The notes below the pieces were generated by a model. That model was given only the letters and a program-made list of their open reading frames with translations, was not told where the DNA came from and did not search any database. A program made the position numbers and the translations under genes. Positions 1,014-36,455 of a DNA stretch of 64,000 bases are shown piece by piece. Positions within the stretch are counted from its first letter, which is position 1; every line of letters starts with the position of its first letter. The stretch comes from Kondoa subrosea (Eukaryota). The stretch spans positions 186,001 through 250,000 of the forward strand of contig BCIN01000004.1 in NCBI GenBank assembly GCA_039545335.1. Direction: 5' to 3'.

Positions 1014-2621
1014 TCACGCAGCTTCTACTGCCTGTTGCAACTTTTGTTCCACTCTCATTCTACTTCTTTCCTCCCTTTCCATCTTTCGCTCCCTTTCTTT
1101 CTGAGCAGTTTCGAATCTAGGTGTCCAGGGACCTTGACTTTCGTCTGACCAGAAATCCATTCTATACCTCGTATCTTTCCTGAAATCGACCGCTTTCCCT
1201 AGAGCTATATTGGCTTCGTATGGCGTTAGAAGAGGTCGAGGAAAAGCGTAGCCCCAGTCGATTGATAATCTTGGACAGGAAGTTTGTACAAAGAGAGAAA
1301 TGTGAGGTGACATGAGGGAAAGTTTGGCTGGTGAGAGTTCAGACAACAGAATGGGTATTGATCGGGAAGGTGGTAAGTTTTGCATAACGTTCTGTAGCAT
1401 TCCTTCAATAAGAAGAACCCTACTGCGAATGGAAGGACGATTACTAACCTGCAAGACCGGTAAACTTCCTTGTCGACCCAATGTACCCAAAACGACTCCC
1501 CAAGTTCCATTATCATCTTCTTTTGCTTTCAAGCTCACTTTGCCATTCTCTATAGCTTCACTTCTCATCTTTCTCATCTCTTCATGTTGATATCCCTCAC
1601 TTGTCAACTTCTTCTCGTATGGATCATAACGGAAAGCTGGCACGGTAGGGTTGGCAATCATGATGCTTTCCAAGTGGAAGCGACCATCGCCAACATAAAG
1701 GATCGCATCTGTATTCTTTGGTAAAGGAGGAGCTGTACACCCTAACACTTCACCAGGCGAAAGTGGTTTGATTTGTGGAACGATGATTTCGATCGTTCGT
1801 CGAGACGAAGAGGAAGTAGAATCTGTCGTGGAATCAGAAGAAGAAGAAGTGATGGCTAGTCTTTGTGGTGCAGCTTCCAACTGCGCGAGATTCGATCCGA
1901 GTGATTGAACGGCTGCTAAGAATTGGACCGTCCCTACACAAGCTATCCTGAATGGTTCGTTCGAGACAAGATTGGCTTCTGGTTGAGTTGCTGGTGAAGA
2001 TATACTGAGAGCAGGTAAGTCAAGGACAGCTTGATGTAGATCTTCATCTTGCAGGCATTCTGGGAAGTTGTACCGCACCGCTTGAGCAAGGTGAGAAGTA
2101 TCAATAGTGATCTCGACGAAAACATAGAGTGTGCGGATCGTCGTGCTGTCTATCGGGACTGTCCACAAACACTTCAGCTCCGCATAAAACTAGACTCGAG
2201 AAAACCTACTTAAACAAGAATGCCCGTAATGGACCAACATGTCGCAACCTAGTGCTCTCGCAGTGTAGTCGTCTACGCAGCATGCTCCATAGGTCACGTC
2301 GCCCAGCACGATTGCTTCCGCTTCAGTGAACTGTTCGACCAAATCAACCAATGCACAAGACCACATTGACAATCCTTCAGGCATTTGCAGTGCAACTCGT
2401 TGAATAGCATATTTCCTGATCTGCCAAATTGTCTTGTGCACTTCAAACGAATAATTCGAAGGCAAAAGAGCAGCAATGGCTCGATTCAAGAGGTCATCGT
2501 TCAGTACAGAAGCTGGGACCTGGTTCACTGGCACAGCGTTGCTGTTCTGGCTTCGTGTGCTACCATCAGAAGGCTTCGTTCGTCCAACAAAGCGTTTTCT
2601 CGGTTTTGCTTCTTCTGCCAT
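1014..2621 (-). CDS. DPH1: Diphthamide biosynthesis protein 1
   Basis: [73 protein letters not shown]; two introns. Confidence 0.95.
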
Positions 2622-13320: not shown

Positions 13321-15831
13321 ATGTCAAGAGCAACTCGTGGTCTATCAGGATCAGAGCCTTGTGCTGCTTGCAAGAGACGTAGAAGTAGATGTGAAACAGT
13401 TGTTGGGCAGGCTAGTTGCAAGGCTTGCCTATCCAGCAACACAGAATGTGATTTGGGTCTGGGTGAAGATATGCGCAGAGAATCAGTCACTGCCCTCAAA
13501 GTCAGTCACATAATCAAACACATGCACGATCAGAAATTTGACAATCGCATGAATGACAGCGGAAAGTGCAGCAATTGGAAGCAGAATTGGCAGCACTCAG
13601 ACGATACAGACTGGAGCGATCGAGGAATGATAGTCTTTCGAGTGCAGATTCGCCTTCGCCAGTTACACCTCATCTGGGCTCATCATCTTCGAGTGCTTCC
13701 CGCTTGCCTAATGTCGCAAAAGACGCATCACGAACTCAAGATGATCTTGTCGCTTTGACAGAAAAGTTGACAATCTCTCACACCGGCGAGGTCATCAGTC
13801 ATGGACCAAGTCAGTTGTCCGGAACATATACAACGATATTTTCTGAGTACTGATCAAACAGCGTCCAATCCTCTCCTGATTATCGACTCACCTCCCTCTA
13901 CTCCTGATCCTCGTCCGAGTACATGCCCTGCGCATTTTCTACCCAATGGAGCGACGCCTGAACTCGTGGAACATCTGCTTGGACTGTACTTCAGATGGGT
14001 ATTTCCTAATTCCAGTATCTTTCGGTAGATCGTCTCATAATTTTCTATAGCATCACACTTTTTTCCTACTCTTCTCAAAGCCAGCCTTTCTTTCTCAATT
14101 AGCGACAGGTGGGAAATACTGCACCCCTTTACTACTGAATGCAGTCTTAGCCTATGCCGTAAGTATCACTGCATCCTAATTTGACCTTTCACTGACATGT
14201 ATGTGATACATACCTTCAGTCAGCTATTTCCGATCGAATCGAACTTCGAAGCGATCCAGCAGATCCATCAACTTCAGGAGATGCTTTCATGCAAATGGCT
14301 CGCAACTTGATGGCTAGCGAAGTTTACGATAGACCTTCAGTAACTACTGTCGCTGCCATGAATTGTATGGCCAAAAGGGAAGCAGCTTTTGGTCGACCTA
14401 ATGTTGATATGTTTCCCTTCTCCTTCCCAGAAATAGGGTTTTGAAGCTGATATATACCATGCACGCTGGATATACAGTGGTATTGCTCACCGATTAGCTA
14501 TTGGTTTGGGTTTGCACATCGATCCCACGCCACTTGTTAGAGACGGACTCTTGACTGAAGAAGAAGCCAGAGTGAGGAAAATCTGCTTCTGGGGCTGTTA
14601 CGCAAAGGATAAAGTGAGTCATGGACATTTCGTTGCCTTGGTAGGCTCACAAAGTCACAGGCTTGGTCTGCTTATCTTGGACGGCCGGACGCAATTAGAT
14701 CAGAAACGGTTACTACGCCTAGAGTAGAAGATTGGACAGGTGAAGATGTGCCAGCGACCCATTCGTCAAGTCCAGAGTACACAAGCTTTCCTGGCCTGCT
14801 GCACGCTAACGTTATCTTTTATCGTTTTGTCGATCTCTGGTGCATTTTCAACACTATGCTACATCAACTCTACTTTTCGAAAGGCCATCTCGAACCGCAG
14901 AATAAACTAGTTCCTGCTCTCGCATTGGCAAAAGAAGTCGAAACCTGGCGAGCAGCTTTACCAGAATATGCTAGAATCAAAGAAGGCTTTAATGGACCAA
15001 TTATTATGCAGCTACAGTAAGCGGATGACAAGATGTTAATGCAACCACGCTCAAGGTTTTCCACACTTAGTATGCTTGCTGAAACTATTGTACTTCTGGC
15101 CTTCCGTCCACATCTAGATTGCAACAATGCTACACCATCACCGCGAAGTCGCTGTTTGACAGCAGCCAAAACAATATGTCGCTTTCTCCAGCAATATAAA
15201 ACCTATTTTGGCTTGTGAGTTACACTGTCCAGTCTAGCTATTTGAAACCTAAGACCAGAATTCCGACAGACGGATTGTTAGCCTGGTCATGATCTATGAA
15301 ATATCCAACGCGGCTACTATCTTCCTCTCCTTATCCCCTCTCCTTTCACAAGGAAAAACTCCGCAGACTCTAGCCGAATTAGTTGAAATCACCAATCTAC
15401 TTGAATTATGTATCTCTTCTCTAGAAGAAATAGGATCCAACGGTTGGAAATCAGCTACACGAGCAGCTAAAGGCTTAAGACAATTGCAAAAACAACAAGA
15501 ACAGCAACAACAGCAGCAGCAGCAGCAAGCTGTACGACAACTTCCGCCTCCTTCTCTACTTCAATCTTCTGAATCTGTTCCACCAATTCAAATACCTTCT
15601 TCTTCTTCTTCCCTTGCTGCTCAAGGAATGAGTCTAGGTGGATTTGAAGAACCTTTTGGTCGATCTCCACCTATTCTACCAGCGCAGTATCATTTCGATC
15701 CTTTTCAACAGCAACAAGATTATCATTGGCAATTATCTTTTCAAGAAGATCCCAATTCAGTCAGTGTAGAAGGAGAGGATCCAATGTTGTTCAGCGCACC
15801 GGCAAATAGTACTGGACCGTGGATGTTTTGA
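13321..15831 (+). CDS. Zn(II)2Cys6 transcription factor with fungal-specific TF domain
   Basis: CAACKRRRSRC...CKACLSSNTEC cluster; HLLGLYFRW, YCTPLLLNAVLA, GWIYSGIAHRLAIGLGLH, RKICFWGCYAKDK, LGRP; polyQ tail. Confidence 0.9.
14407..14464 (+). other. Non-canonical AT-AC intron (58 nt)
   Basis: G|atatgt...gctgat...atgcac|GC TGG restores NVGWIYSGIAHR. Confidence 0.8.
15493..15528 (+). repeat. CAA/CAG trinucleotide repeat (polyQ) in the TF
   Basis: caacaagaacagcaacaacagcagcagcagcagcaa. Confidence 0.8.
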
Positions 15832-16273: not shown

Positions 16274-17136
16274 TTATTCTTCGTCGCTCGCGGCCTGTAC
16301 AACGTCGGCATGATCGAATGAGTACAGACTCAAACAGAGCGAGAACCGAAACTGTACCTTTTCTTCTGCTGAAGCTTCATCTTCGGAAGCAGCCTTCTTC
16401 TTGGACTTCTTACTGCGAGAGATGATTCAACATTGTGAACGACAGGTATGAGAAGCAAGAACATACGGTGCTGCCTTCTTCTTTTCCTTTTTAGCTGTTC
16501 GATCAAGAAGTACATTATCAGATGAATTCTGACACGAGACTTTCGCAATGACGAACGAGCAGCTTCAACACCGTTCTCTGTAGTCATTGCAGTCAGTAAG
16601 GGTCTTGTTGATCTTACGGTAAGACGAACCTTCATCATACTTGGCTTTAGCTTCGGTATATCGTTCCTTGTCAGCTTCAGCTTGTTCTTGGTAAGGTGCT
16701 GGATAGACTCCAAGCATCAGCAAGGTGGCACAAGGTGATGCGATGCGGTGGAACTAACCCTTGTCCTAAATCGCCGCAGCAGAGATTGAGTCCTTGTATT
16801 GGGGTGTGGCAATTCAGCGTACCTCCTCAGACATAGCAGACCATTCTAGAAGAGAATCAGCATTATACCTTCCACGGTAGGGCAAAGAACAGACTGGCTC
16901 CAATCAATTTGCCAATCTCACCAAAACCAGCGTCCGGGTTCTCAGCTTTAACTTCTTCCCTTGCATCTTTAGAGAAGAACATGTAGGCAGATAAAGCTCT
17001 CTTTGGTGCATTAGGATCCTTCCTGTTGACGTGTAACACAAGCATAAGTTGTTGTTTTCGTGAGAACAGAAAATGAAAGAAGGACGCGCTTCTTGGTCTC
17101 CTTCTTCTCTCCTTTTGGTTTAGTTTCTTTAGGCAT
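16274..17136 (-). CDS. NHP6: Non-histone HMG-box protein Nhp6 with basic/acidic C-terminal extension
   Basis: MPKETK...[67 protein letters not shown]; several small exons. Confidence 0.92.
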
Positions 17137-18545
17137 GTTGATGTACTCTGTTAGTAGAAGAGATCGAGGGGATGAGTATTTGGTCGGTCACAACAACAAA
17201 GTGAGTGCCGAAAATCGAGGCTTACAAGGTAAAGAACGTTGGGAAGCTTGTTTTGATTGATCTAGATAAGGATGATACAAGGCTCTGTTGATGGCAGAGC
17301 ATGGTAGAGAGATGGCACGAGTGAGAGCAACGAAACATGGGGGACAAGCAAAACAAAGCCAGAGAATGCGTGGAAATGGCGTTGAAAGGCGTTAAGAAGT
17401 AAGGGAAGATGGATAGAGGCATAGTTAGCACTTGATAAATTTTGACATGGGTGAAGAACAACAACTCACGCGTCAACACTTGATTTGGCTCAGCACTTGG
17501 GATGCGGGTGAGCGCAAAGGGGAGCGAAAATGGCTGGGAGAATCCAAAGGGAGTGGCGAATTATGTGAAATGTCTGTCACCCTCAGTGACGCTTTCCTTC
17601 TTTCCCCTCTTTCTCCTCTTTCGACGAAGGCTTCTGCTTCTCTGCTGTCTCAAGATTGTTATCTTAGACTTTCGAAATCAGACCATGCAATCTTCTTCTC
17701 CGATTTCTTCATCATTCTGCTGAGGATGACCATATTGCTAACTCGTTTACCGCGATTCATCTCTTTTCGCTTCCACTTCGCGCTTGCATTCTGCGAGAGT
17801 CTCACGCGACGGTATCCTCCAATCGCTCCTCGCTGTGATGCCTTCCCTTGCGCTTCCTGGATGAACATAACTATATGTAACAATCTTCTCCTCACAGACT
17901 CGTTCTTTTCGCTGCTCTGTTCCTCGTCACGACCTCGATCACCTATGGTCAATGATGCTTTGCTTTAAAGATCCTTGCGATGAAGTTGCAGCGCTTTCAT
18001 GCTCTTTCTCTTGCATCTCAGTATATGTCTCCTCTATGTCCAGACTACTGATGCACACGGTAGAACAGTGCGAGTTTTGCCCAATCCGGTTCCATTGTCC
18101 TTGCAAGCTAGCTATCTGGATGTGTTTCTTTCGGTAGCAGTTATTTCCAGTCTCTACATTCACACCTCACTAAAACCACGCTGTTCTGGTACCTCAGTAT
18201 ATTTATATGAAGGCCTAAACCAGGCGCATTAAGATCATGAATAACGAGGGATGCATTTGGTTTTTGCGACGATTACAAATTTTTACTCTCTAACGGTGAG
18301 AGAACCGGATCTTGTGCTTAAATAGAAGCTTGCTTAATAGTACAACATATAAATAAATAGAAAACCTCTTCCATCTTGGAGGGCCAACAAACAAAAACGA
18401 ATGACGCCAAAACAAAAATACCTACCCAACTTTCCTTATACTTCTCCTACTGAACCAAACGACAAATACAGATGCACTTCAAAAAAAGAAGAGAATGGTG
18501 TGAAGGTCAAAAGAAACAAAGGAACCAGCCTTTATTCCGTCTTCC

Positions 18546-20292
18546 TTATATAGCAGACCAAACATCTTCATTCCGAGGAGAAGGTTGTGATGAATTGCCT
18601 TCTCCTTCAACAACAACATCATCGGGTCCAATATTCGTTTGTTTGCCGCTGTTCCCATTCAAGCGGTGTAAGAGTTCTTGAATCTCGATCCCTTCTTCAT
18701 CTAAACGAACTTTGGTTGCCCTATGAGGCCACCATTCCGGATAAGCATTCTGTTGCTCTATCGGCTCCGATTGATGTTGATGCTCTTCTTGTTGATGACA
18801 TCTCGAAGGGAACGTATAAGAAGGGGAAGGTGGAACAAAAGGTGAAATCATGTCCAATTCCGCTTCGGTTGGGAAAGCAGCTTGGGAGAAAAGTTGCGGT
18901 TGTGATTGAGAGAAAGGTAAAGAAGCTGGTGTGTACATTGGCGTTCCATGCGCTAAGTGCTGCTGTCCGGGAAGTGGAATGGAAAGATCACCGCCGAAAC
19001 AAGTTGGAACTTGCCAATTAGTCGGATCATCTGCAATATATGACTGGGCCGGTGAGTTCGTTGCTGTTTGTGCAGAGTTCATCCAATTGTCAAACAGAGG
19101 TAAAGTGGGTTGCATGAGAGTGGGAAATTGCTGGCTTTGTGAAGAATAATGTTGTTCTAGCTGAGAAGCAAATAGCGACTGATCTCTCATCCGCTGTTCT
19201 TCTTGATGCTGCTGATTCTGCTGATTCTGTTCTTCGTTCATGTTCCAAATTGCGTTCAGCTGAGCTTTCACTTCCGGAATCGATTTAGGTGTATCATCGG
19301 TTAGTGGGAACATGGGAGATTCAGATTCTTCATTGCCTTCAAGCGACATGCCAGCCAAAGCAGTTGACGGCGTAGATGGAGCACTTCTTTGAGCTGATCG
19401 AGTTGCCCTTTTGGCAGGTGCAGTAGAAGGACGAGAGCGAGCAGAAGAAGAAACAGTTCGAGTCTTCTGAGTAGATACTGAACCATCTTTACTCTTGTCA
19501 GTCTTCTTCTTTGGCCTAAACTTGTATCCTGTTTTTCAGAAAAGTAATGTCCGAATCAGGTCAGTGTCCCGATGAATTTCTGGAAGGAAAAAAAAAGCTT
19601 ACCTGGATACTGAGCATCATGTTCTTGCTTCCTGTATTGGGCCTGCAACTCATACTTCCTCTTGACTTCCGGTGCTTCAGCTCTCCATCTCTCCCCAATC
19701 ATCTTTGACAATTCAGCTTGAGGCGTTTTGATGACCGTCTTTGTTTCTTTGATTTCAAGCAACTTGTCTGATCTATATAAGATCCATGCATTAGGAGGAC
19801 GAGCAATTTTAACCTCTTTTTTGACCGGCAAAATTTCAGGTGAAGATAAATCGTAAGTTAAAGGAGTGATAGGTGAATCCAGACGATCAGAAGTAGCGCT
19901 TGCAGCTGAAGAGAAAGGGAATTCGCTGTCGACCAGAGAAGGCGTATTGAGTCCAGACGGGAGTCCAGAAGTGAGGGAAGAATAGCCTGAATCGGGCGCT
20001 TGAAGATAGAGTTGCTGTTGCCAATCGATGTAGGCATCAGTTGTCCCGTTATACGAGGTAGGGACTGGATGAGAAATGGTAGGAATATTGAAGGCAAAAT
20101 AGCCTTCGCCTGCAGAAGCAGGTGGCTGCGGGATCGCATAGTCCATAAATTGTTCCGCATCAGCAAAGGTTGTTGAAGTTGGAGGAGCTGTTGATGGTCT
20201 GCGAAGATTGCCGTAATCTGACAACAGTAAAGGATCAGTCAGCGTAAATCACATAAGCACCCGGTCGACAAACCTAAAGTGGCGAACGACAT
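18546..20292 (-). CDS. Sequence-specific MATA/SOX-type HMG-box transcription factor
   Basis: KIARPPNAWILYRSDK...PQAELSKMIGERWRAEAPEVKRKYELQAQYRKQEHDAQYP|GYKFRPK; flanked by S/P/Q-rich regions. Confidence 0.88.
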
Positions 20293-21310
20293 GTTTTGGT
20301 ATAATGCAATTTTGCTCTTGGTGGTGGTGACGAGTAGATCTGCTGCTGCAAGGATGCTGACAGGCAACAACAATGTTCCAAGCGTTCAAGCTGCAGATCT
20401 TCTTATGGGAACCGGGAAAGATAAGCCTTGCAAGTCGCGCTCTGAAGACCCAATTAGGACCAATTAAGCTTCAACAAGGTTGGATGACAGCGAGAGATCT
20501 GTTCACCTTGGAATTGGCTCGTTGGTAGAGTACAAGAGCTGACGGTCAAACACCGCAGAAGGAGTCAGCAGCAGGAATCCCATCGCGGACAGGCGAGCGT
20601 CGAGACAGAGAGCCAAGAACCGGTCACGTCGATCCCAGCCGCTTAATTCTCTGGGGATGACAAAAAAATCACCGAGCCGAACAAAAAGCGTTACCAAGCA
20701 CGTTGTAGGATCGTAGCTGATAACGCATGAGGATAACAAGGATCTGCAGGCTTATATGAGGAGAATGTTATATTTCGAGAAAACTCAGAGAAATTGTTGG
20801 CAAGACGCAAGACGCAGATCTCGCTAGCAAGACAGTCACAATGGAAAAGTGACCTGCATCGAGCAGATCCCAGATTGGTAATCAGTAAAAGCTAGACAGA
20901 GACCCGCTGCCGAAACCTGGACTAGTGAGAAAATCTGGCCGGATGCGCCGCGCATAGACATTCACAATTCTCATTGTTACATCACCATAAACAAGCAAGT
21001 TGGACGTCGATAGATCGCAAATCAGAAAATGACCAAAAGTGGACACTGTCGAATCCCGTACTACTGGGAAGAGACTTTTTCCCCTCCTCTCCGCGAAAGG
21101 CCGCCGTAAGGAATATTGGCATTCTTGAGGCCCAGAGCAAGCCAAGAAAAGCGTGACAGCGGGAGAGGAGCAATTCGGCGAGGTGCGAAAGTGAAATGTC
21201 CGCTCCACAGAGAAGTGGTGAATTTCGTCGCGGGATTGTGTGATAGGCAGTTCCTGCTGATGGCTGCTCTAGCTCTTGCGCCCTAAAGGGTTGGGCTATC
21301 ATCAGGTTGT

Positions 21311-21423: not shown

Positions 21424-22977
21424 ATGAGCAAACAAGAGGAAGAAGGCGGAGCTATTCCGCAAGCTCAGAAAGCATCATGGAGCACATTCCTCAAGCAGTG
21501 CGTTCGAGGCTGGCTAGATCTGAGTGTGTAGAGGTCTCATAGATGATTCAAACAGAATCGCAAGCTCAAAGGGAGATCTGTCTTCGATGACTGCCCCTAG
21601 TTTCATTCTATCGTGAGCTTCTATCCGCAGCTCAGAACTCGGTCTTAACGTCTCGTGTCCTGTCTAGGCCAACATCATTGACTGAGTTCTCCGCTTATTG
21701 GTGCGAGCCAACAGAGGAATTCCTTGCAATCAGCGCTGGGACCGATGCTGAAGATCGCATGCTAAGGTCTGCAGTAGTTTGGCTATCATCTAGCGGTTTG
21801 GATTGATTGTGATCTACTTGCAGAGTACTCAAGTGGTTCATTTGCACTCTACGAGGTCAATACACTGCCAGAGAAACTCAGACCGGTAGTGAGAAGAAGG
21901 TAAGGCTGATGTATACAGGCTTCATCGATATTATCTGAAACCTCACTCCTCTAGCCTTTGAATCCTATTCTTGGTGAATTGCATCTTGGCGAATGGGAAA
22001 CTTCCAAAGGTCCTACGAAGTTGGTTAGCGAGCAAGTCTCTCATCACCCTCCTATCACGTAAGCGAGGGTTCCCAAAGATTCATAGTCGTATGCTCACGT
22101 CAGCGAGTGATTTAGTGCCTATCATATTTCTAATGAGCAAGCTGGAGTAGCGTTGCAAGGTCATTGTGGTCAGAAGACTTCTTTCGGAGGCAAGACCATC
22201 AGCGTCAGACAAGTTGGACATGCTCTACTGACTGTCAAATTGCCAAGCGGAGAAACGGAGAAATACCTCATCACTCTACCTAAACTGCGAATCGAAGGAT
22301 TATGGTACGGAGCGCCGTACATCGAATTGAGCGAATCTTCCTACATTCAATCTACTTCTGGATATCACGCTGCTATTGCTTATTCAGGCAAAGGTTACTT
22401 CTCTGGCAAATCCCATACTTTCTCCGCTTCCGTTTCCTCTCAACCATCAACTTCAAGTAAAGATGCTCTATACGTCGTTGAAGGTCAATGGACTGAATCT
22501 TCCAAATACTCCAAAGGCACCAAAGGTTCCAAAGCTAAAGAAGGTCAACCGTTCCTTGATGTTAGCCGAAGCGCACCAGGTTGGAAATCATTGAACGTCA
22601 AACCTGTGAGCGAACAAGGTCCAATGGAAAGTCGAAGAGTTTGGTACGATGTAGCAGAAGGAATCAAGAAGGGCATGTTTGATGATGCTACTGCTGCAAA
22701 GATGAAGTTGGAGAACGATCAGAGGCAGAAGAGGAAAGATGAACAGGCGTCTGGTCAAACTTGGCAATTGCAGAGGTTTACTTTAGTCAACGATGATGCT
22801 GATTGTAAGTCAATTGGTTCGATAGGTATCAGCCTTGAGCTGACATTCTTTTACAGATCGAACATTGGCCAAGGCTTTCGGAGGAGACGTTCGTCTTTCT
22901 CCCGAGTGATGACGAATTTCCGCTGACTTTCGTCTCCATAGCCATCCACTCAAGACTCATATCATTTCAAGGCATAG
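21424..22977 (+). CDS. KES1: Oxysterol-binding protein (Osh4/Kes1 type)
   Basis: [65 protein letters not shown]. Confidence 0.92.
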
Positions 22978-23879: not shown

Positions 23880-26800
23880 ATGAAAGGCATTGCGGATGGC
23901 TGGACTCACGTGCAAGCGTTGCTGGAAGATACCACGGAAGCCTCGCTACCGTTTGAACTCTGGGATATACTTTCGCAGTCGCTGAATGAGAAAGAGCAAG
24001 AGCGGTTTGTCATTGCAATTGAAGCTCAAGGGACAGCTAGAAGTGTGCTATGCTGGGCGAAGAAGAGTAACAGCAAGTCACAAGTCAGCCTTTTAGGATG
24101 TTACAAACGTATAACAGAGCTCATGCATGTGTTCAGTCATTACCGGTTATTCCTCTTGAATTGGGCAAAAGGCTAGGCGCCTTTACAGAGCAAAAGCAGC
24201 TTTCTTGTCGTCTTCGCTGCACAAATCTTCTTCCGCTTCATCATCTTGTTCTTCTTCCTCAGACCGACGCTGCATACCAATTTGCCCAAACCTCCTCAGC
24301 CGAGCTGGCTAGTAGTCTTTCCGCCAATTCGCGAATCTTGCGGCAAGACAATGTGGTGACAATTGTAGAGGAGGCATCACAGAAGAAGTCTGCTCACAGC
24401 TACCAGATCGCACTGACAGAGCCAGTACTACAAGGCTTCTATGACATACAACGTACCAGCTTCACAGCTATTGCTCCTCCTACTATCATCTCAAATGGCG
24501 CAGCAGATGTGTCAAACGGAACAGAAGAGGAGCAAGACATGGAAGACTTTGTGGGAGACATCTCGGTTGACGAATCGTTTCTCGCTCAAGACTTCAATAA
24601 TAATCTCTGGCTATCGACTGAACAGCCAAAGTCGCATTCAAATGCACTACAATATCAGCCCAGCAGTCCTTCTGTGAAATTGCCTGTCAAAGACAGGTCA
24701 TGGCAAGATTGCGTATGTCTTCCTCTTAGATCACCAATAGATCCATTATTATACATGAGTACCCCTTCCGAAGCTACCTGGGACAGCAAATGTGATGTAT
24801 TTATTCGAAGCCAAGATTTGCTCAGGCTACATCTTTTCGCTGGCGACTTCGTTCTGCTCAAGTCAAAGAATGCGACAGAGTCAGAAGGACATCTCGCACG
24901 AATTTGGGCATGTGATCTGATCTTCTCACGCTACACCTTGTCCTCAAATGAAGCTAGCCTCCCATTCTTGCTCTTACCACCTCTTCTGCTACACAACCTG
25001 AATCCATCTGATTGCGCACCAAGCGAAGCATGTCAAATTATCCCGCTACGATCTTTCGACTCCAAAAGAATTCCAACGGCGAAAAGTATTACTGTGGCTC
25101 GAATCGCTTCACCTGTTTCTACCTTCAAAATATACGAACCTCTCTTCTTTCGAGCTCTCCAAAATTTCTTCGAACAGGATGGAGGCAAGAGATTGGTTCA
25201 AGAAGGTGATATGATAGCTGTTGGTATCAACGAAGGAGAAGCAAGATGGGCTGAAGAAGCTTCTTGGCAGTCAGTTTCTTCCTCTTATTCATTGCACCTA
25301 TACTGAAGCTATATATGTACATAGACTCCCAAGCACTTCTCTTCTATCGCCTACTAAGCTTGTCTATTTCCTCATCACTTCCGTTTCGCTTTCTTCTCGT
25401 CGGTCAGAATCAGCCTATGCGATCGAGAATGGAGAATTTGGTTCTTTCGCCATTGTAGGAGAAACCAAACTCGTTCAATCCGGTTTAGAGAAAAGCATCA
25501 AACCTTCCGAACCATCAAGTGGTTTATCTTCTTTCCTTGGTCTCAAATCTTTCAAGGGAGAACTGCTCTTACCTCAATTAGTCGAATATCTTGCAGCTGC
25601 TTTGTCCGAACAAGCCTCGTTACTTGATCTCACGTTATCGATTCTGGTCAAGGGAGGGAAAGGATCAGGAAAGAAGACGGCCTTGAAACTTGCTGCTGCT
25701 AGGGTTGGGATGGAGAGTATGGTGATTGACTGTTTTGATTTGTTGGGAGAATCGGAAACAAAGACCGAAGGCTTGATCAGAGCTAGAGTGGATCGTGCGA
25801 TAGAGAGTGCTCCTTGTTTGTTGGTCTTAACGAATGTGGAAGCGCTGGCTAGAAAAGCTCAAACAGTAGAGAATGGTCAAGGTGAGCTGCTCTTTTGATA
25901 GAAGGGAAGAAGGCAATTTTGATGAGATTAGCAGATCCACCAACTGTTTTGGTGCTTCAAGATTGCTTGAACCTGCTCAAAAGCAGCTGGCGAGAAACAA
26001 GATGGCCTGTCATACTTGCTGCAACTACTTCAGATGTTGATAAGCTGCCCGCAAGTGTTCTGAGCTGTTTCAAGTCTGAGTTCTCGATAGAGGTAAGCTT
26101 TCCTTTTGTGACCTTGTACTCGCGCTAAACGAATTGAATGACAGGCACCAGATGAAGCTACACGTCTGAAAATGCTCAAAAGCATAGTGGAAGAGGATGT
26201 CTTATCGCCTGATGTGTCTTTACGAAATATTGCGGTTCAGAGTGCTGCTTTATTGGCAGGCGACCTTGTTGATTTGGTCAGTCGAGCTCGTCTAGCTGCG
26301 TTCAAGAGGGCACAAGAGTACGAGTAAGCTATCACCGGCCATGTTCCTTAGTAGTGCTGACAATTTGTGAAGTGCATACAGCGATTTGCCATCATTCGAT
26401 CTACAAGCAGCGGGTCTTGCTCTGACTGGCGCTGACTTCTCGTCTGCGATGGACAAAGCTCGAGCTTCCTATTCTGAATCCATTGGAGCTCCCAAGATTC
26501 CTAATGTCACTTGGGACGATGTTGGCGGTTTGGCATCAGTCAAAGCCGATATTCTGGATACCATTCAACTTCCTCTAGAACATCCTGAACTCTTTGCTGA
26601 AGGTCTCAAGAAACGATCTGGTATTCTGCTCTACGGTCCACCAGGAACAGGCAAGACTTTGCTCGCCAAAGCAGTTGCTACTTCTTGCAGTCTCAACTTC
26701 TTTTCCGTCAAGGGTCCAGAACTGCTCAACATGTATATTGGTGAATCCGAAGCCAATGTTCGAAGAGTGTTCCAGCGAGCAAGAGATGCGAAACCTTGCT

Positions 26801-27570
26801 GTATCTTCTTTGATGAGTTGGATTCAGTTGCGCCGAAGAGAGGCAATCAAGGCGATTCAGGCGGAGTGATGGATCGTATTGTCAGTCAATTGCTTGCTGA
26901 ATTGGACGGAATGGCAGACGGAACAGCTGGAGCGGATGTCTTTGTGATCGGCGCTACCAACAGACCGGATTTGCTCGATCCTGCTTTGTTGCGACCTGGA
27001 AGGTAAGCAGCACGCGCTTTGGTTGCATTACTCGCGCTAATAATTTGTCTAGATTCGATCGAATGCTCTTTCTCGGCGTCAGCGACAATCACGATGCTCA
27101 ACTTCGTATTATTCAAGCTCTTACACGCAAATTCAAGCTCAATCCAGCAACTGATCTGGCAGCAATAGCAGAACAATGCCCTTTCAACTACACTGGAGCG
27201 GATTTCTATGCTCTATGTTCAGACGCTATGCTCAAAGCTATGACGCGACAAGCCTCTGAAGTGGATGAGAGAATAGGTGAGTATTCAATCAGGATTATTG
27301 ATCTCGGCTTAGCATGTTGTAGCTGCCATGAATGCTGAACCGCCTTACTCGAATGGCATGCAAACGAAGATGACACCTCAGTACTATTTATCAGAAATTG
27401 CCCAATCGTGGGAAACAGACGTCTTGGTCTCACAAGGGGATTTCGAAAGCGCTTTGGCTGAATTAGTACCAAGTGTCTCGCAACATGAGATGCGACATTA
27501 CGCCGAGGTGCAGCAGAAGTTCTCGTCAAAGGCAGTGCAGAAGGTTGATAAGGGAAAGGGAAAGGCTTAA
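23880..27570 (+). CDS. PEX6: Peroxisomal AAA+ ATPase Pex6
   Basis: ITVARIASP; degenerate D1 (GGKGSGKK); [91 protein letters not shown]. Confidence 0.96.
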
Positions 27571-32591: not shown

Positions 32592-35500
32592 TTATGTATA
32601 CCACTGTCTCTTCAACTTCCTAGATTGTACCTATTAGCAGTATTAGCATAACTGAAATGATCCTGCTACCATAACATACCAAAGGCTGTGTTACAGCTAT
32701 TGCTCCGAACAGCCCAGCAAGAACTAAGACCAGTTGGAGCTTGTTGAAGTCCTCTCCGAGTACATCGAATGTTTTCGATGGCGCTACCCTAGCAGCAAGA
32801 AGATCCATTCCGTGAGCTAGGATAAGCGAAGTACTTTCGAGAATCGTTGGAGTTGCAGAAACCGCTGAGTTTGCTGAAGACAGGAGATTCCCTTGTTGCG
32901 ATAAGATCCATTTAGGCTCTGCCGGGAGTAAAGGCTCGTAGGCCATGAGATGTTCTTCCATTTCCATCGTTGTGAGCTTCTTGCCCTTCTCCTTGACTGG
33001 TCGACGAGGATCAAGGAATGTTCGAGAGATGCTCAAAAGCGCTCCAGTATCAGTAGTGACTGTCATCGCTGGTGAGCTCAATTTGTAACAAATCAGGCTA
33101 AACACACCTAGTAGATTCTTGGTCGGTATGCCTCGCTCTGTTCTTGTTGTATCGAGGCTTCTGATCACGTATGGTGCTAGATATGAGTTTGCGAAGCGAA
33201 TAGGTGGGCCTCTTAGTCTGAAACTAGTATCTTCCCTGTAAAGCTGTCTGAGCACTGTTTGAACATGTATTTTTGAAAGCTTACTTCAATACAGGCGGGG
33301 TTGGGATCTTCTTACTCTTCTTCTTCTTCGGAACAAGTGGCTTGTCATAGAACTCTGCTGAGACGACTTGAGATAGCTTTCCAAGTCCCTTCTTTTGCAA
33401 GAATGAGTAGACCAGCCAGTTTTCAGTCAATGTGGCCTGGACAGGCGAAGAAGTGATTGCTTCGCCTTCATGTAAAGATGTCCAAATTGCCTCGCCCGAA
33501 ACACTGTCTAGTAGATAGACAGCAACAGTATTGGTGGACGGAGTAGTTGTGGTGACGGCGATTAGATGAGGGTTGATGTACTTGTACAAGGTCTTGCGAT
33601 CGCCCATAACTTTCCCAAGTAGAGCAACTTTGCCTGCAACACACACAGTCAGCTCCGCGTATCAAGGTTTCGGAAAATATACCTCCAGCCTGAGTTGCTA
33701 TACTGCTAACAGTTTCATCGAGCGTCGGAGGTAGCAAGAAGTTCCAAGCTAAGTGAGTGGGGATATCCTTTAGCTGTAGAACGATCTTCAACAAGTTTTC
33801 TGTCCTGAGGTGGGAGTGCCTACTACAGAGTGATCTTCAGGCCAAAGGATCAAATAACCGAATATCCTCTTCTTGTCTTCCACATCATAATAGAAGACAG
33901 GTGCTTCAGGTATGACTGGAGATGCATCGGATAGACCAGAAACGACATGTACCTGTCTGTATTTAACTTCAATTGTCGAGCTGGCCGATGATCATGCTTA
34001 CCTTGTGAGAGGTATCGACAACCACCAGAGATGTAGCAGGTAGGCCTTGAGCCGCAGGTAAAGCAAAAGACGTCCGAATGCGGCCTTGGAACAGCTTTTC
34101 TGCTGGACTTCTGAGTTGTCCATTAGTTGCATCTAGTCGGAAAGCGACAGCTTCATAGTTGCCCTGCGACTCAAACTCAGCATCTGTTGCGGTCATGGGA
34201 TTGAGCAAGCTTACTTGACCATCTGAAACTTCACCAATTGCCAACAACGTCTTATGCGGGACAATAGCTTTCTCTTCATCGAGCAGAAGCAACTTCTTCC
34301 AATCTACCCGTTGTCCATCGGCTATCAACAACCGTTCCCAAACGACAGGCATATTTCCTTGACCTAACACATCCAAACCAAAGATTTTTCCACCTTGACT
34401 CGCCAGTACGGCAATTTTCTTGAATCCGAAACTTCTAGTCAACCAATCTTCTCCAGAGGAAGTAGAAGCGACTTGGCCTTTGAAGGAATTCAACCAATAC
34501 CCAGGTTGGGCCATATCTTTCCACTGAACGCTCTTGCCATAATCCAATAGTCCAAGAGCATGTCTCCCCCATCGATCGAGGTATGACTCAGTGATAGGTC
34601 TGACATTTTTTCCTCCTCTTGGAGTAGAAACATCAACCCAAACAGGACCGGTTCCAGCAGTCAAATCAGCTAAACCTAATTCCAATTTCCAGTTCTCTTT
34701 CTTTTCATTAGAAGTAGATGAGATCCACATTTGTAAACTTCCGCTAGAGGTCAAAATCACACTTCTGGACAACCGACTTGAATGAGGGTTCTTATGTTCT
34801 ACTTCATCAGCTGGAGGAGGGATGATAGCTAATTCTGTAGTCATCAGAGGTGTAAAGGATCCATGTAGGGCTGCGTTGTATGGGAAAGAAGAACCAGTGA
34901 CGAAACCTTTGGCTGAGATGCTCGATGGCGTTGAGGTGTAGGTTGATCCTAATGCCATGGACAGAGTGGAAGAGTAGTGAATTCGAGTCACGTGGACTGA
35001 TTGCTCTCGATCGAGCACACCGGAGAAAGTTGCATGAGGTATCTATAAAGTGGAAGTCAGAGCAGTCTAGTTGACAGCTTTGGTATAGCTCACCGCATCG
35101 TTGAATTCCCAAGCTGACTCTAATTCGCAAGTGGCACCAGGAGCGAAGCGCAATACTGAGGCAGCGCCATTTTTCTTCTTTGCCAGAAGATAACCAGCTG
35201 ATTCCAGGCCGAGCGATTGGACAGATACATATGGGTTTGTAGAGCTAGTATCTGACGCAGGCTTGTATGTACATGTTATGCTTCCAGCTGAACAGAATGC
35301 TTGAATGGAGAATGATTTCGTCAGATAGACGAAGTTGGAAAGATCAGGGAAAGGTAGGATATTGGCAGATGCATCTTCCACATAGCTTTTGATTGTATTC
35401 ATGTGTGTACTTTGGATGTCGCCAGACGAAGGATTGAAGCTGATTGTTTGAGGATGACTATCTGAGCCAACGAAAAGAATAGCATCCGAGACCACTTTGA

Positions 35501-35993
35501 TCGGAGTGTAAGCTTGGGAGAAAGACGGCAGCGGTTCCGACCACAAAGGTTCTGCATTCACTGCTTCTAGCTTGACCAAAGTCTTTGCTGTCAGACAAAG
35601 CAGCTTCGACCCGTTCTCGACGACAGCAACATCCAGTAGAGGTTCTTCAGACGTGTAGTCGCCTAGAAATTGACCAGAAGGCCCATGTAGTACTGTTATG
35701 CCTCTAGAAGACACTAAAACCAGCTTCTCGTTGACAGCAATATATCGCTCGACTCCAGGCCATTGCAGCCTCCAAGTGAAAGAACCATCTCTGGGACTGA
35801 TTGAAGCTATTACAGGATCTGCTCCAGTCGGATGCGACAAAGCATAGACCGTCACAGGCGCCGAAGCGAGATCTGAAGATTGATAATGGAAAGCAAGCTG
35901 GCTGATGTTGGGCGACAGCAATTGAAGCTGTCTGAGGCCATCCACGGCGAAGCAGGGTATAATCAGCTGTGCCAGAAGCAGCAGCAGCTTCAT
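32592..35993 (-). CDS. EMC1: ER membrane protein complex subunit 1
   Basis: Signal peptide; FGFKKIAVLAS; GKVMGDRKTLYKYINPH; ENWLVYSF; LDPRRP; TPTILESTSL; RVAPSKTFDVLGEDFNKLQL plus TM plus RKLKRQW. Confidence 0.93.
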
Positions 35994-36455
35994 CTTGAGC
36001 ATTCAGGTGGCCGTGACGAGCTGAAGATGCTCGAGCAGGTGTTGGCTCTTTTCCTGAAGCAAGCTATCACTTTGCGCATGGCACTTGCTGGCTCGCCATG
36101 CTTAATAACAATTATAGAGAGCGATCTAGGGAAGTCTCACTCTGCATCTGCGCCTGTACACAAGATTCGAATTTTATATCCAATCTGAAATTGCGTTTGC
36201 ATGCGAGGAGAAGACGCGACATGCTATCATTCCCGCTCTTCGTCTTGGAGACCATTCTTGTGCTTAGCTTGCAAATTCTCTAAGATGAATGTTCATCTTT
36301 CCAGTTGTTACCTCCATCTGTATCCGTCCTGGATGCTTGAAGATTGTTGCGATTGCTGTCACATTATCGGGCTTTTGCTCTGCTGTATGCATCCTTCCCC
36401 TCAAATTCACGGACTTTAGCGACTTAGTAATCTGGGAAGTGTTGTTCATGTTCGC

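Follow-up and report, generated by a model that had tools for sequence, protein, structure and literature searches.

A probable U2-type AT-AC intron in a Zn2Cys6 transcription factor gene of the basidiomycete Kondoa subrosea

Judged from its sequence and from homology, a 58-nt segment at positions 14407–14464 is probably a genuine U2-type AT-AC (type II) spliceosomal intron within a Zn2Cys6 transcription factor gene of a basidiomycete. Coordinates throughout are those of the window, the whole 64,000-nt stretch of DNA that we analysed (Kondoa subrosea contig BCIN01000004.1, assembly GCA_039545335.1, positions 186,001–250,000, plus strand). This reading draws on the observation that, with the 58 nt removed, the gene is intact, consisting of nine exons and 690 codons with one terminal stop. 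In the RNA, the exons would be joined at 14406/14465; this joint, the machinery that makes it and the efficiency of the reaction are predictions.

The gene lies on the plus strand at positions 13321–15831 and contains eight introns, its translated model running from an ATG at 13321 to a stop codon at 15829–15831. In Pfam comparisons, exon 1 matched the Zn(2)-Cys(6) cluster domain (PF00172) with 24.2 bits against a cut-off of 21, and exon 6 alone matched the Fungal_trans domain (PF04082) with 28.7 bits against a cut-off of 23. The latter match starts one residue before the conserved tryptophan. Exon 4 scored 15.2 bits with PF04082, which is under the cut-off. The model aligns along the homologues P0005, P0004, P0028 and others. 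Apart from intron 5, all introns of the gene are GT-AG introns of 47–61 nt: intron 1 (13501–13559, 59 nt), intron 2 (13810–13861, 52 nt), intron 3 (13999–14050, 52 nt), intron 4 (14159–14219, 61 nt), intron 6 (14614–14660, 47 nt), intron 7 (15017–15070, 54 nt) and intron 8 (15215–15269, 55 nt), all on the plus strand. Their donors are GTCAGT and GTGAGT (two each), GTATTT, GTAAGT and GTAAGC. Their branch motifs, CTGAT, CTGAC, CTCAC or CTCAT-like, stand 8–24 nt from the 3' ends, the CTGAT of intron 2 being 8 nt away.

Intron 5 resembles these seven neighbours in its length of 58 nt, its G+C content of 0.40 and its CTGAT branch motif, while its ends are AT (14407–14408) and AC (14463–14464). The preceding exon 5 (14220–14406, plus strand) ends ...CCT AAT GTT G in phase 1, and exon 6 (14465–14613, plus strand) starts GC TGG ATA TAC AGT GGT and encodes the G-W-I-Y-S-G...LGLH block. 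Removal of the 58 nt joins both frames, giving N-V-G-W as the junction residues, whereas read-through hits a TGA 13 codons in. The 5' splice site, ATATGT (14407–14412), is identical to GTATGT at five of six positions. We adopted from PMC1557818 the criterion that a donor of this class fits the U2-type consensus except for A at +1; compared with the gene's own GTNNGT/GTATGT-type donors, without a score matrix, ATATGT fits apart from that A. The putative branch site, CTGAT (14447–14451), is the sole CTRAY-like motif in the intron. Its branch A, at 14450, lies 14 nt from the 3' end, within the 8–24 nt range of the other introns. The 3' splice site is CAC (14462–14464; 14461–14464 reads GCAC), the analogue of CAG. 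No AG occurs from 14447 to 14475. The first-pass annotation had reported the AT...AC ends, the length, the CTGAT and the exon flanks, and the letters are exactly as it gave them; its description of the donor as GTATGT-like with A at +1, and not of the U12 /ATATCCTT form, also stands.

To locate the boundaries by homology, we took every in-frame, stop-free removal of 40–160 nt around the site, with any terminal bases (n = 2100), and scored it with a profile built from 18 homologues that reach LGLH, the window itself being left out. The AT-AC removal 14407–14464 ranked top of the 2100 with 131.4 bits. The best GC-AG removal (14385–14436) scored 119.7 bits and the best GT-AG removal (14392–14446) 116.4 bits. 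Ends of a known type are present in just 27 of the 2100 candidates (8 GT-AG, 5 GC-AG and 14 AT-AC), and the fact that the removal preferred by homology falls among these 27 suggests that intron 5 is more than a product of chance. With a wider profile, the AT-AC removal was top of 1691 in-frame removals, without ties. In control rankings with the same profile, carried out blind, GT-AG ends were top or tied for introns 3, 4 and 6 (three of three), and the ties were only shifts that yield an identical protein. A multiple alignment across the intron 5 junction was gapless. Ranking and alignment together bear out the earlier proposal that a junction with exactly AT...AC ends restores the conserved G-W-x-Y-x-G...LGLH block. 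The runners-up for intron 5 were neighbouring non-canonical shifts, just 2.7–3.2 bits below, so that homology alone confines the ends to a few bases and not to the exact base; within that range, AT-AC is the sole pair known to be spliceable. Both boundaries are held this closely because homology in exon 5 reaches G-R-P-N-V and because the G-W-I-Y-S-G codons follow directly after 14464. By itself, the AT-AC pattern is weak evidence, since it arises by chance: a loose AT..CTRAY..YAC scan gave five other matches, on the minus strand, of which three fall within uninterrupted open frames, one runs antisense to the transcription factor gene and one is at 20849–20955.

When the exon-5 reading frame was compared by phmmer with 1.84 billion representatives, 41 matches had E ≤ 0.001. 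These extend to query residues 67–70, corresponding to ...G-R-P-N-V, so coding continues to about 14405. We examined 39 of the 41, leaving aside two very long repeat proteins. G-W is present at the junction position in 23 of these 39 homologues, and two others end before the site. The closest fragment, P0027, comes from a Logan contig of 5.1 kb, where it forms an ORF of 44 aa; across 44 aligned residues it is 61% identical. It reads ...A-N-V-G-W-L-Y-S-G, in agreement with N-V-G-W, and is uninterrupted at the position of intron 5, which is therefore not common to that relative. In 11 homologue ORF fragments the frame breaks 5–22 residues past the tryptophan, and from these sequences the data suggest that the family's usual intron lies about seven codons downstream of the intron 5 site, in the same phase. 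Exon 7 gave no match at E ≤ 0.001 among longer proteins, and the exon-5 ORF gave no candidate among proteins of similar length. The one locus returned by a metagenome scan, L001, was discarded as a false positive: it encodes a repeat protein of bacteria whose only likeness is the peptide SDPADPST, shared by chance.

The affinity of the host was read from the neighbouring Dph1 ORF (1014–2189, minus strand), whose family was named via a protein atlas. Its best named relatives are Pucciniomycotina, with Meredithblackwellia at 50% identity followed by unnamed Microbotryomycetes, Sporobolomyces and Rhodotorula. Among the 120 matches listed, every named one is a basidiomycete as far as the genera were recognised, and the lineages of four of these relatives were confirmed in the taxonomy. 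The host had been taken for a Dikarya-type fungus from its sequence, and the Dph1 relatives and their lineages place it there, specifically with Basidiomycota. Identity of Dph1 to its nearest named relatives is only 45–50%, which indicates that the host lineage is poorly sampled. Both Dph1 introns are GT-AG, so splicing in this host looks conventional. In a survey that covered more than 3000 eukaryotic genomes, Ascomycota and Basidiomycota are reported to have no convincing minor introns (PMC10639083). From this survey and the basidiomycete affinity, both indirect, we infer that intron 5 would be removed by the major spliceosome.

The alternative that intron 5 is a U12-type AT-AC intron, and that the host has retained a minor spliceosome, is in our estimate extremely improbable. 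Intron 5 shares its terminal dinucleotides with introns of that class, its first four bases, ATAT, fit /ATATCCTT, and a distance of 14 nt between branch site and 3' end would suit a U12 intron. The branch box of U12-type introns, however, is TCCTTAAC-like and stands 10–15 nt from the 3' end, and no such box is present in GAAGCTGATATATACCATGCAC, the sequence before the 3' end of intron 5. The donor differs as well: ATATGTTT mismatches the U12 5' splice site consensus /ATATCCTT (PMC5029451) at +5 and +6, where it has GT and not the near-invariant CC. It is on account of this donor and of the missing branch box that we regard the features of intron 5 as U2-like. The poor sampling of the host lineage speaks for this alternative, and a small probability is kept because minor-spliceosome RNA genes have been reported in one basidiomycete, Cutaneotrichosporon oleaginosum (PMC7072748); against this, the machinery is reported missing from the host phylum (PMC10639083). 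An Rfam scan of the 64-kb window gave 0 matches, a scope too small to say much about minor snRNAs. An assembly or sequencing error that conceals true GT and AG ends we consider very unlikely. It would take two independent substitutions at exactly the first and the last base of the intron, one of them a transversion, in a window without any N in which the nine other introns examined (seven in the transcription factor gene and two in Dph1) have clean ends.

Use of a canonical GT-AG pair in place of the AT-AC ends we judge quite improbable. The first-pass annotation had named 14411–14477 (GTTTCC...ACAG, plus strand) as the competing choice; this pair is indeed in frame, with a length of 67 nt, and its AG at 14476–14477 is the first AG past the branch A of CTGAT. 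To it we add four in-frame GT-AG pairs absent from that annotation, 14392–14446, 14365–14446, 14340–14436 and 14349–14436; the first two of these and 14411–14477, all three stop-free, are the pairs that might be used. The protein would then depart from the family pattern. Against the 131.4 bits of the AT-AC removal, 14411–14477 scored 110.5 bits and 14365–14446 scored 101.4 bits, and 14392–14446, as given above, was also lower. Removal of 14411–14477 would turn the conserved G-W-I-Y-S codons into intron, and removal of 14392–14446 would lose the homologue-matched G-R-P-N-V, with G-R-P-N-V-G swapped for seven other residues. The donors GTTTCC and GTCGAC are poor, and 14392–14446 would require two upstream YAGs (14429–14430 and 14435–14436) to be skipped and has no CTRAY near its 3' end. 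Joining the ATATGT donor to AC 14456–14457, AC 14474–14475 or AG 14476–14477 shifts the frame and leads to a stop within about 30 codons. The strongest rival to a functional AT-AC intron is a dead or rarely spliced insertion. Here the 58 nt would be a lesion that disables the gene, whether a small insertion or an intron whose ends were ruined, and the gene would be a young pseudogene or null allele, or one that is rarely spliced. The uninterrupted site in P0027 is in keeping with such a lesion, as are the 11 fragments in which the frame breaks downstream, which suggest that the usual intron lies elsewhere. Yet the rest of the gene is intact, with eight other exons open and seven introns with good GT-AG ends. 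The chance that a random 58-nt insert would have ATATGT at its start, CAC at its end, CTGAT 14 nt before that end and a fitting length is, by a rough estimate and not a computed value, about 2e-5. Moreover, the two terminal changes are exactly the pair that compensate each other (PMC1557818; 10.1101/212811). On balance, we consider a lesion unlikely.

If the segment is the U2-type AT-AC intron that we favour, its removal could proceed as follows. The major spliceosome would recognise the GTATGT-like donor despite the A at +1, and the branch A of CTGAT (14450) would attack at 14407. The exons would then be ligated at the AC (14463–14464, with C at 14464), because A(+1) paired with C(-1) can take the place of the non-Watson-Crick G(+1)/G(-1) contact through which the 3' splice site is docked. 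As seen in the P-complex structure from yeast, the first and the last G of an intron pair with each other, and the A before the last G pairs with the branch A; the authors of that structure consider that a 5' AU together with a 3' AC could be tolerated too (10.1101/212811). In yeast and human pre-mRNAs, changing the last base from G to C rescues a G-to-A change at +1, although splicing is less efficient (PMC1557818), and yeast can splice an engineered AT-AC intron (PMC5029451). In the gene described here, splicing would form a Gly codon, G|GC, and thereby restore the conserved G-W-x-Y-x-G...LGLH of the Fungal_trans domain; retention of the intron, or use of the AG at 14477 with the ATATGT donor, would lead to an early stop. 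That AG, being the first past the branch A, could compete with the AC. The further suggestion of the first-pass annotation, that the intron acts as a rate-limiting switch on TF output, is pure speculation.

U2-type AT-AC introns and the A1/C(-1) compensation are already established (PMC1557818; PMC5029451; 10.1101/212811). SpliceRack lists 24 AT-AC type II (U2-dependent) introns, 15 of them human, six from mouse and three from Drosophila, with human SCN4A/SCN5A as examples (PMC1557818). Like these animal introns, intron 5 combines AT and AC ends with an otherwise U2-type 5' splice site and has neither a U12 donor nor a U12 branch box. The animal introns have a strong /ATAAGT consensus (PMC5029451), whereas intron 5 has /ATATGT, of the fungal GTATGT type. 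Among the animal introns, several recur in orthologues and two have been proven U2-dependent; for intron 5, splicing is a prediction. Comparable, too, are the yeast A(+1)/C(-1) double mutants (Parker and Siliciano 1993, as cited in PMC5029451, PMC1557818 and 10.1101/212811), which carry the same compensating changes in a U2-type intron of a fungus that lacks the minor spliceosome. Those mutants are laboratory constructs that are less efficiently spliced (PMC1557818), in contrast to intron 5, which belongs to a natural basidiomycete gene. Endogenous AT-AC use in a Dikarya fungus is also found in S. cerevisiae RPL30, where it is minor: the AT-AC junctions account for 1–2% of transcripts, are nested in a GT-AG intron and have an atypical donor (PMC5029451). 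In the gene described here, AT-AC would be the sole way to the conserved protein.

AT-AC junctions are on record, as rare events, for other Dikarya as well. In fungal annotations AT-AC is rare (PMC7072748). In gene models of A. niger, T. lanuginosus and P. chrysosporium built on RNA-seq, about 0.03% of introns are AT-AC (PMC4084796); AT-AC is also counted among the splice-site subtypes of Coprinopsis cinerea (PMC12230235) and has been hypothesised for fungal xylanase genes (PMC1557818). These junctions belong to the same class of event as intron 5, but in the three sources they are bulk counts without descriptions of single introns. The main text of PMC3990503 makes no statement on non-canonical ends, and the string 'AT-AC' in PMC3091305 denotes polyketide-synthase domain strings, not intron ends. 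If confirmed by RNA, intron 5 would cleanly illustrate, in a natural basidiomycete gene, the pairing rule for A(+1) and C(-1) that comes from yeast genetics and is seen in spliceosome structures. Gene predictors restricted to GT-AG or GC-AG introns would then mis-model this regulator, leaving it truncated or without its conserved tryptophan block. Even so, the understanding of splicing would be unchanged, because introns of this kind, and rare AT-AC junctions elsewhere in Dikarya, are already known.

As to the origin of the 58 nt, no other copy is present within the window, where blastn gave nothing better than 13 nt elsewhere. Intron 5 has no direct repeats around it, its inverted repeats are short, and its local RNA fold is ordinary (z = -0.89). 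A tandem duplication was considered from a comparison by eye of GCTGATATATAC (14446–14457) with GCTGGATATAC (14465–14475) and was rejected, the likeness being short and of low complexity. Many relatives seem to break frame about seven codons downstream and P0027 has nothing at the site, which raises the idea of a lineage-specific newcomer or a relocated intron. Its gain or shift would have given AT-AC ends in a fungus without the minor spliceosome, and it might splice inefficiently, the output of the regulator then depending on second-step splicing factors. We hold this scenario to be distinctly unlikely as a whole.

The reading frame stops 5–22 residues past the conserved tryptophan (the W of the G-W-x-Y-x-G...LGLH block) in 11 ORF fragments of transcription-factor homologues (P0006, P0008, P0009, P0014, P0017, P0021, P0023, P0027, P0033, P0034 and P0037), as compared with window positions 14465–14490. 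In the long model of another homologue, P0039, an additional insert is present at the same place downstream of the tryptophan. These frame ends, together with the P0039 insert, are consistent with a putative homologue intron located, relative to the AT-AC intron of the window, approximately 7 codons downstream. At this presumed intron place the transcription-factor gene of the window is continuous, and P0027, the closest fragment, shows no interruption where the window has the AT-AC intron. The intron position may have shifted between the window's gene and the homologues, or one intron may have been lost and another gained. Towards its C-terminal end, the transcription factor carries a poly-glutamine tract, encoded by consecutive CAG/CAA codons (window 15502–15528).

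A metagenome scan for exon 5 returned a single locus, L001 (3001–3114), which was rejected as a relative: it encodes a bacterial repeat protein sharing the peptide SDPADPST by chance. Within the window, a loose AT...CTGAT...CAC match of 107 nt was found at 20849–20955 on the minus strand, between two open stretches and upstream of the HMG-box ORF at 19556–20248. Its donor, ATGCGC, is poor, and this match probably arose by chance.

Neighbouring genes were identified by Pfam on the long ORFs of the window. On the minus strand, these encode a GH31 N-terminal domain (111–812), the HMG-box protein (19556–20248) and EMC1 (32620–36002); an oxysterol-binding protein (22111–22926) and a PEX6-type AAA ATPase (24071–27006) lie on the plus strand. 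A small minus-strand ORF (16863–17150), judged by eye only, looks like an NHP6-type HMG-box protein. A Dph1-type diphthamide synthesis gene (PF01866; 1014–2738, minus) contains two ordinary GT-AG introns, one of 51 nt at 2209–2159 (GTAGGT...ACAG) and a second of 57 nt at 1448–1392 (GTTAGT...ACAG). The latter is stop-free and in frame, and tblastn alignments therefore show it as an insertion of 19 residues.
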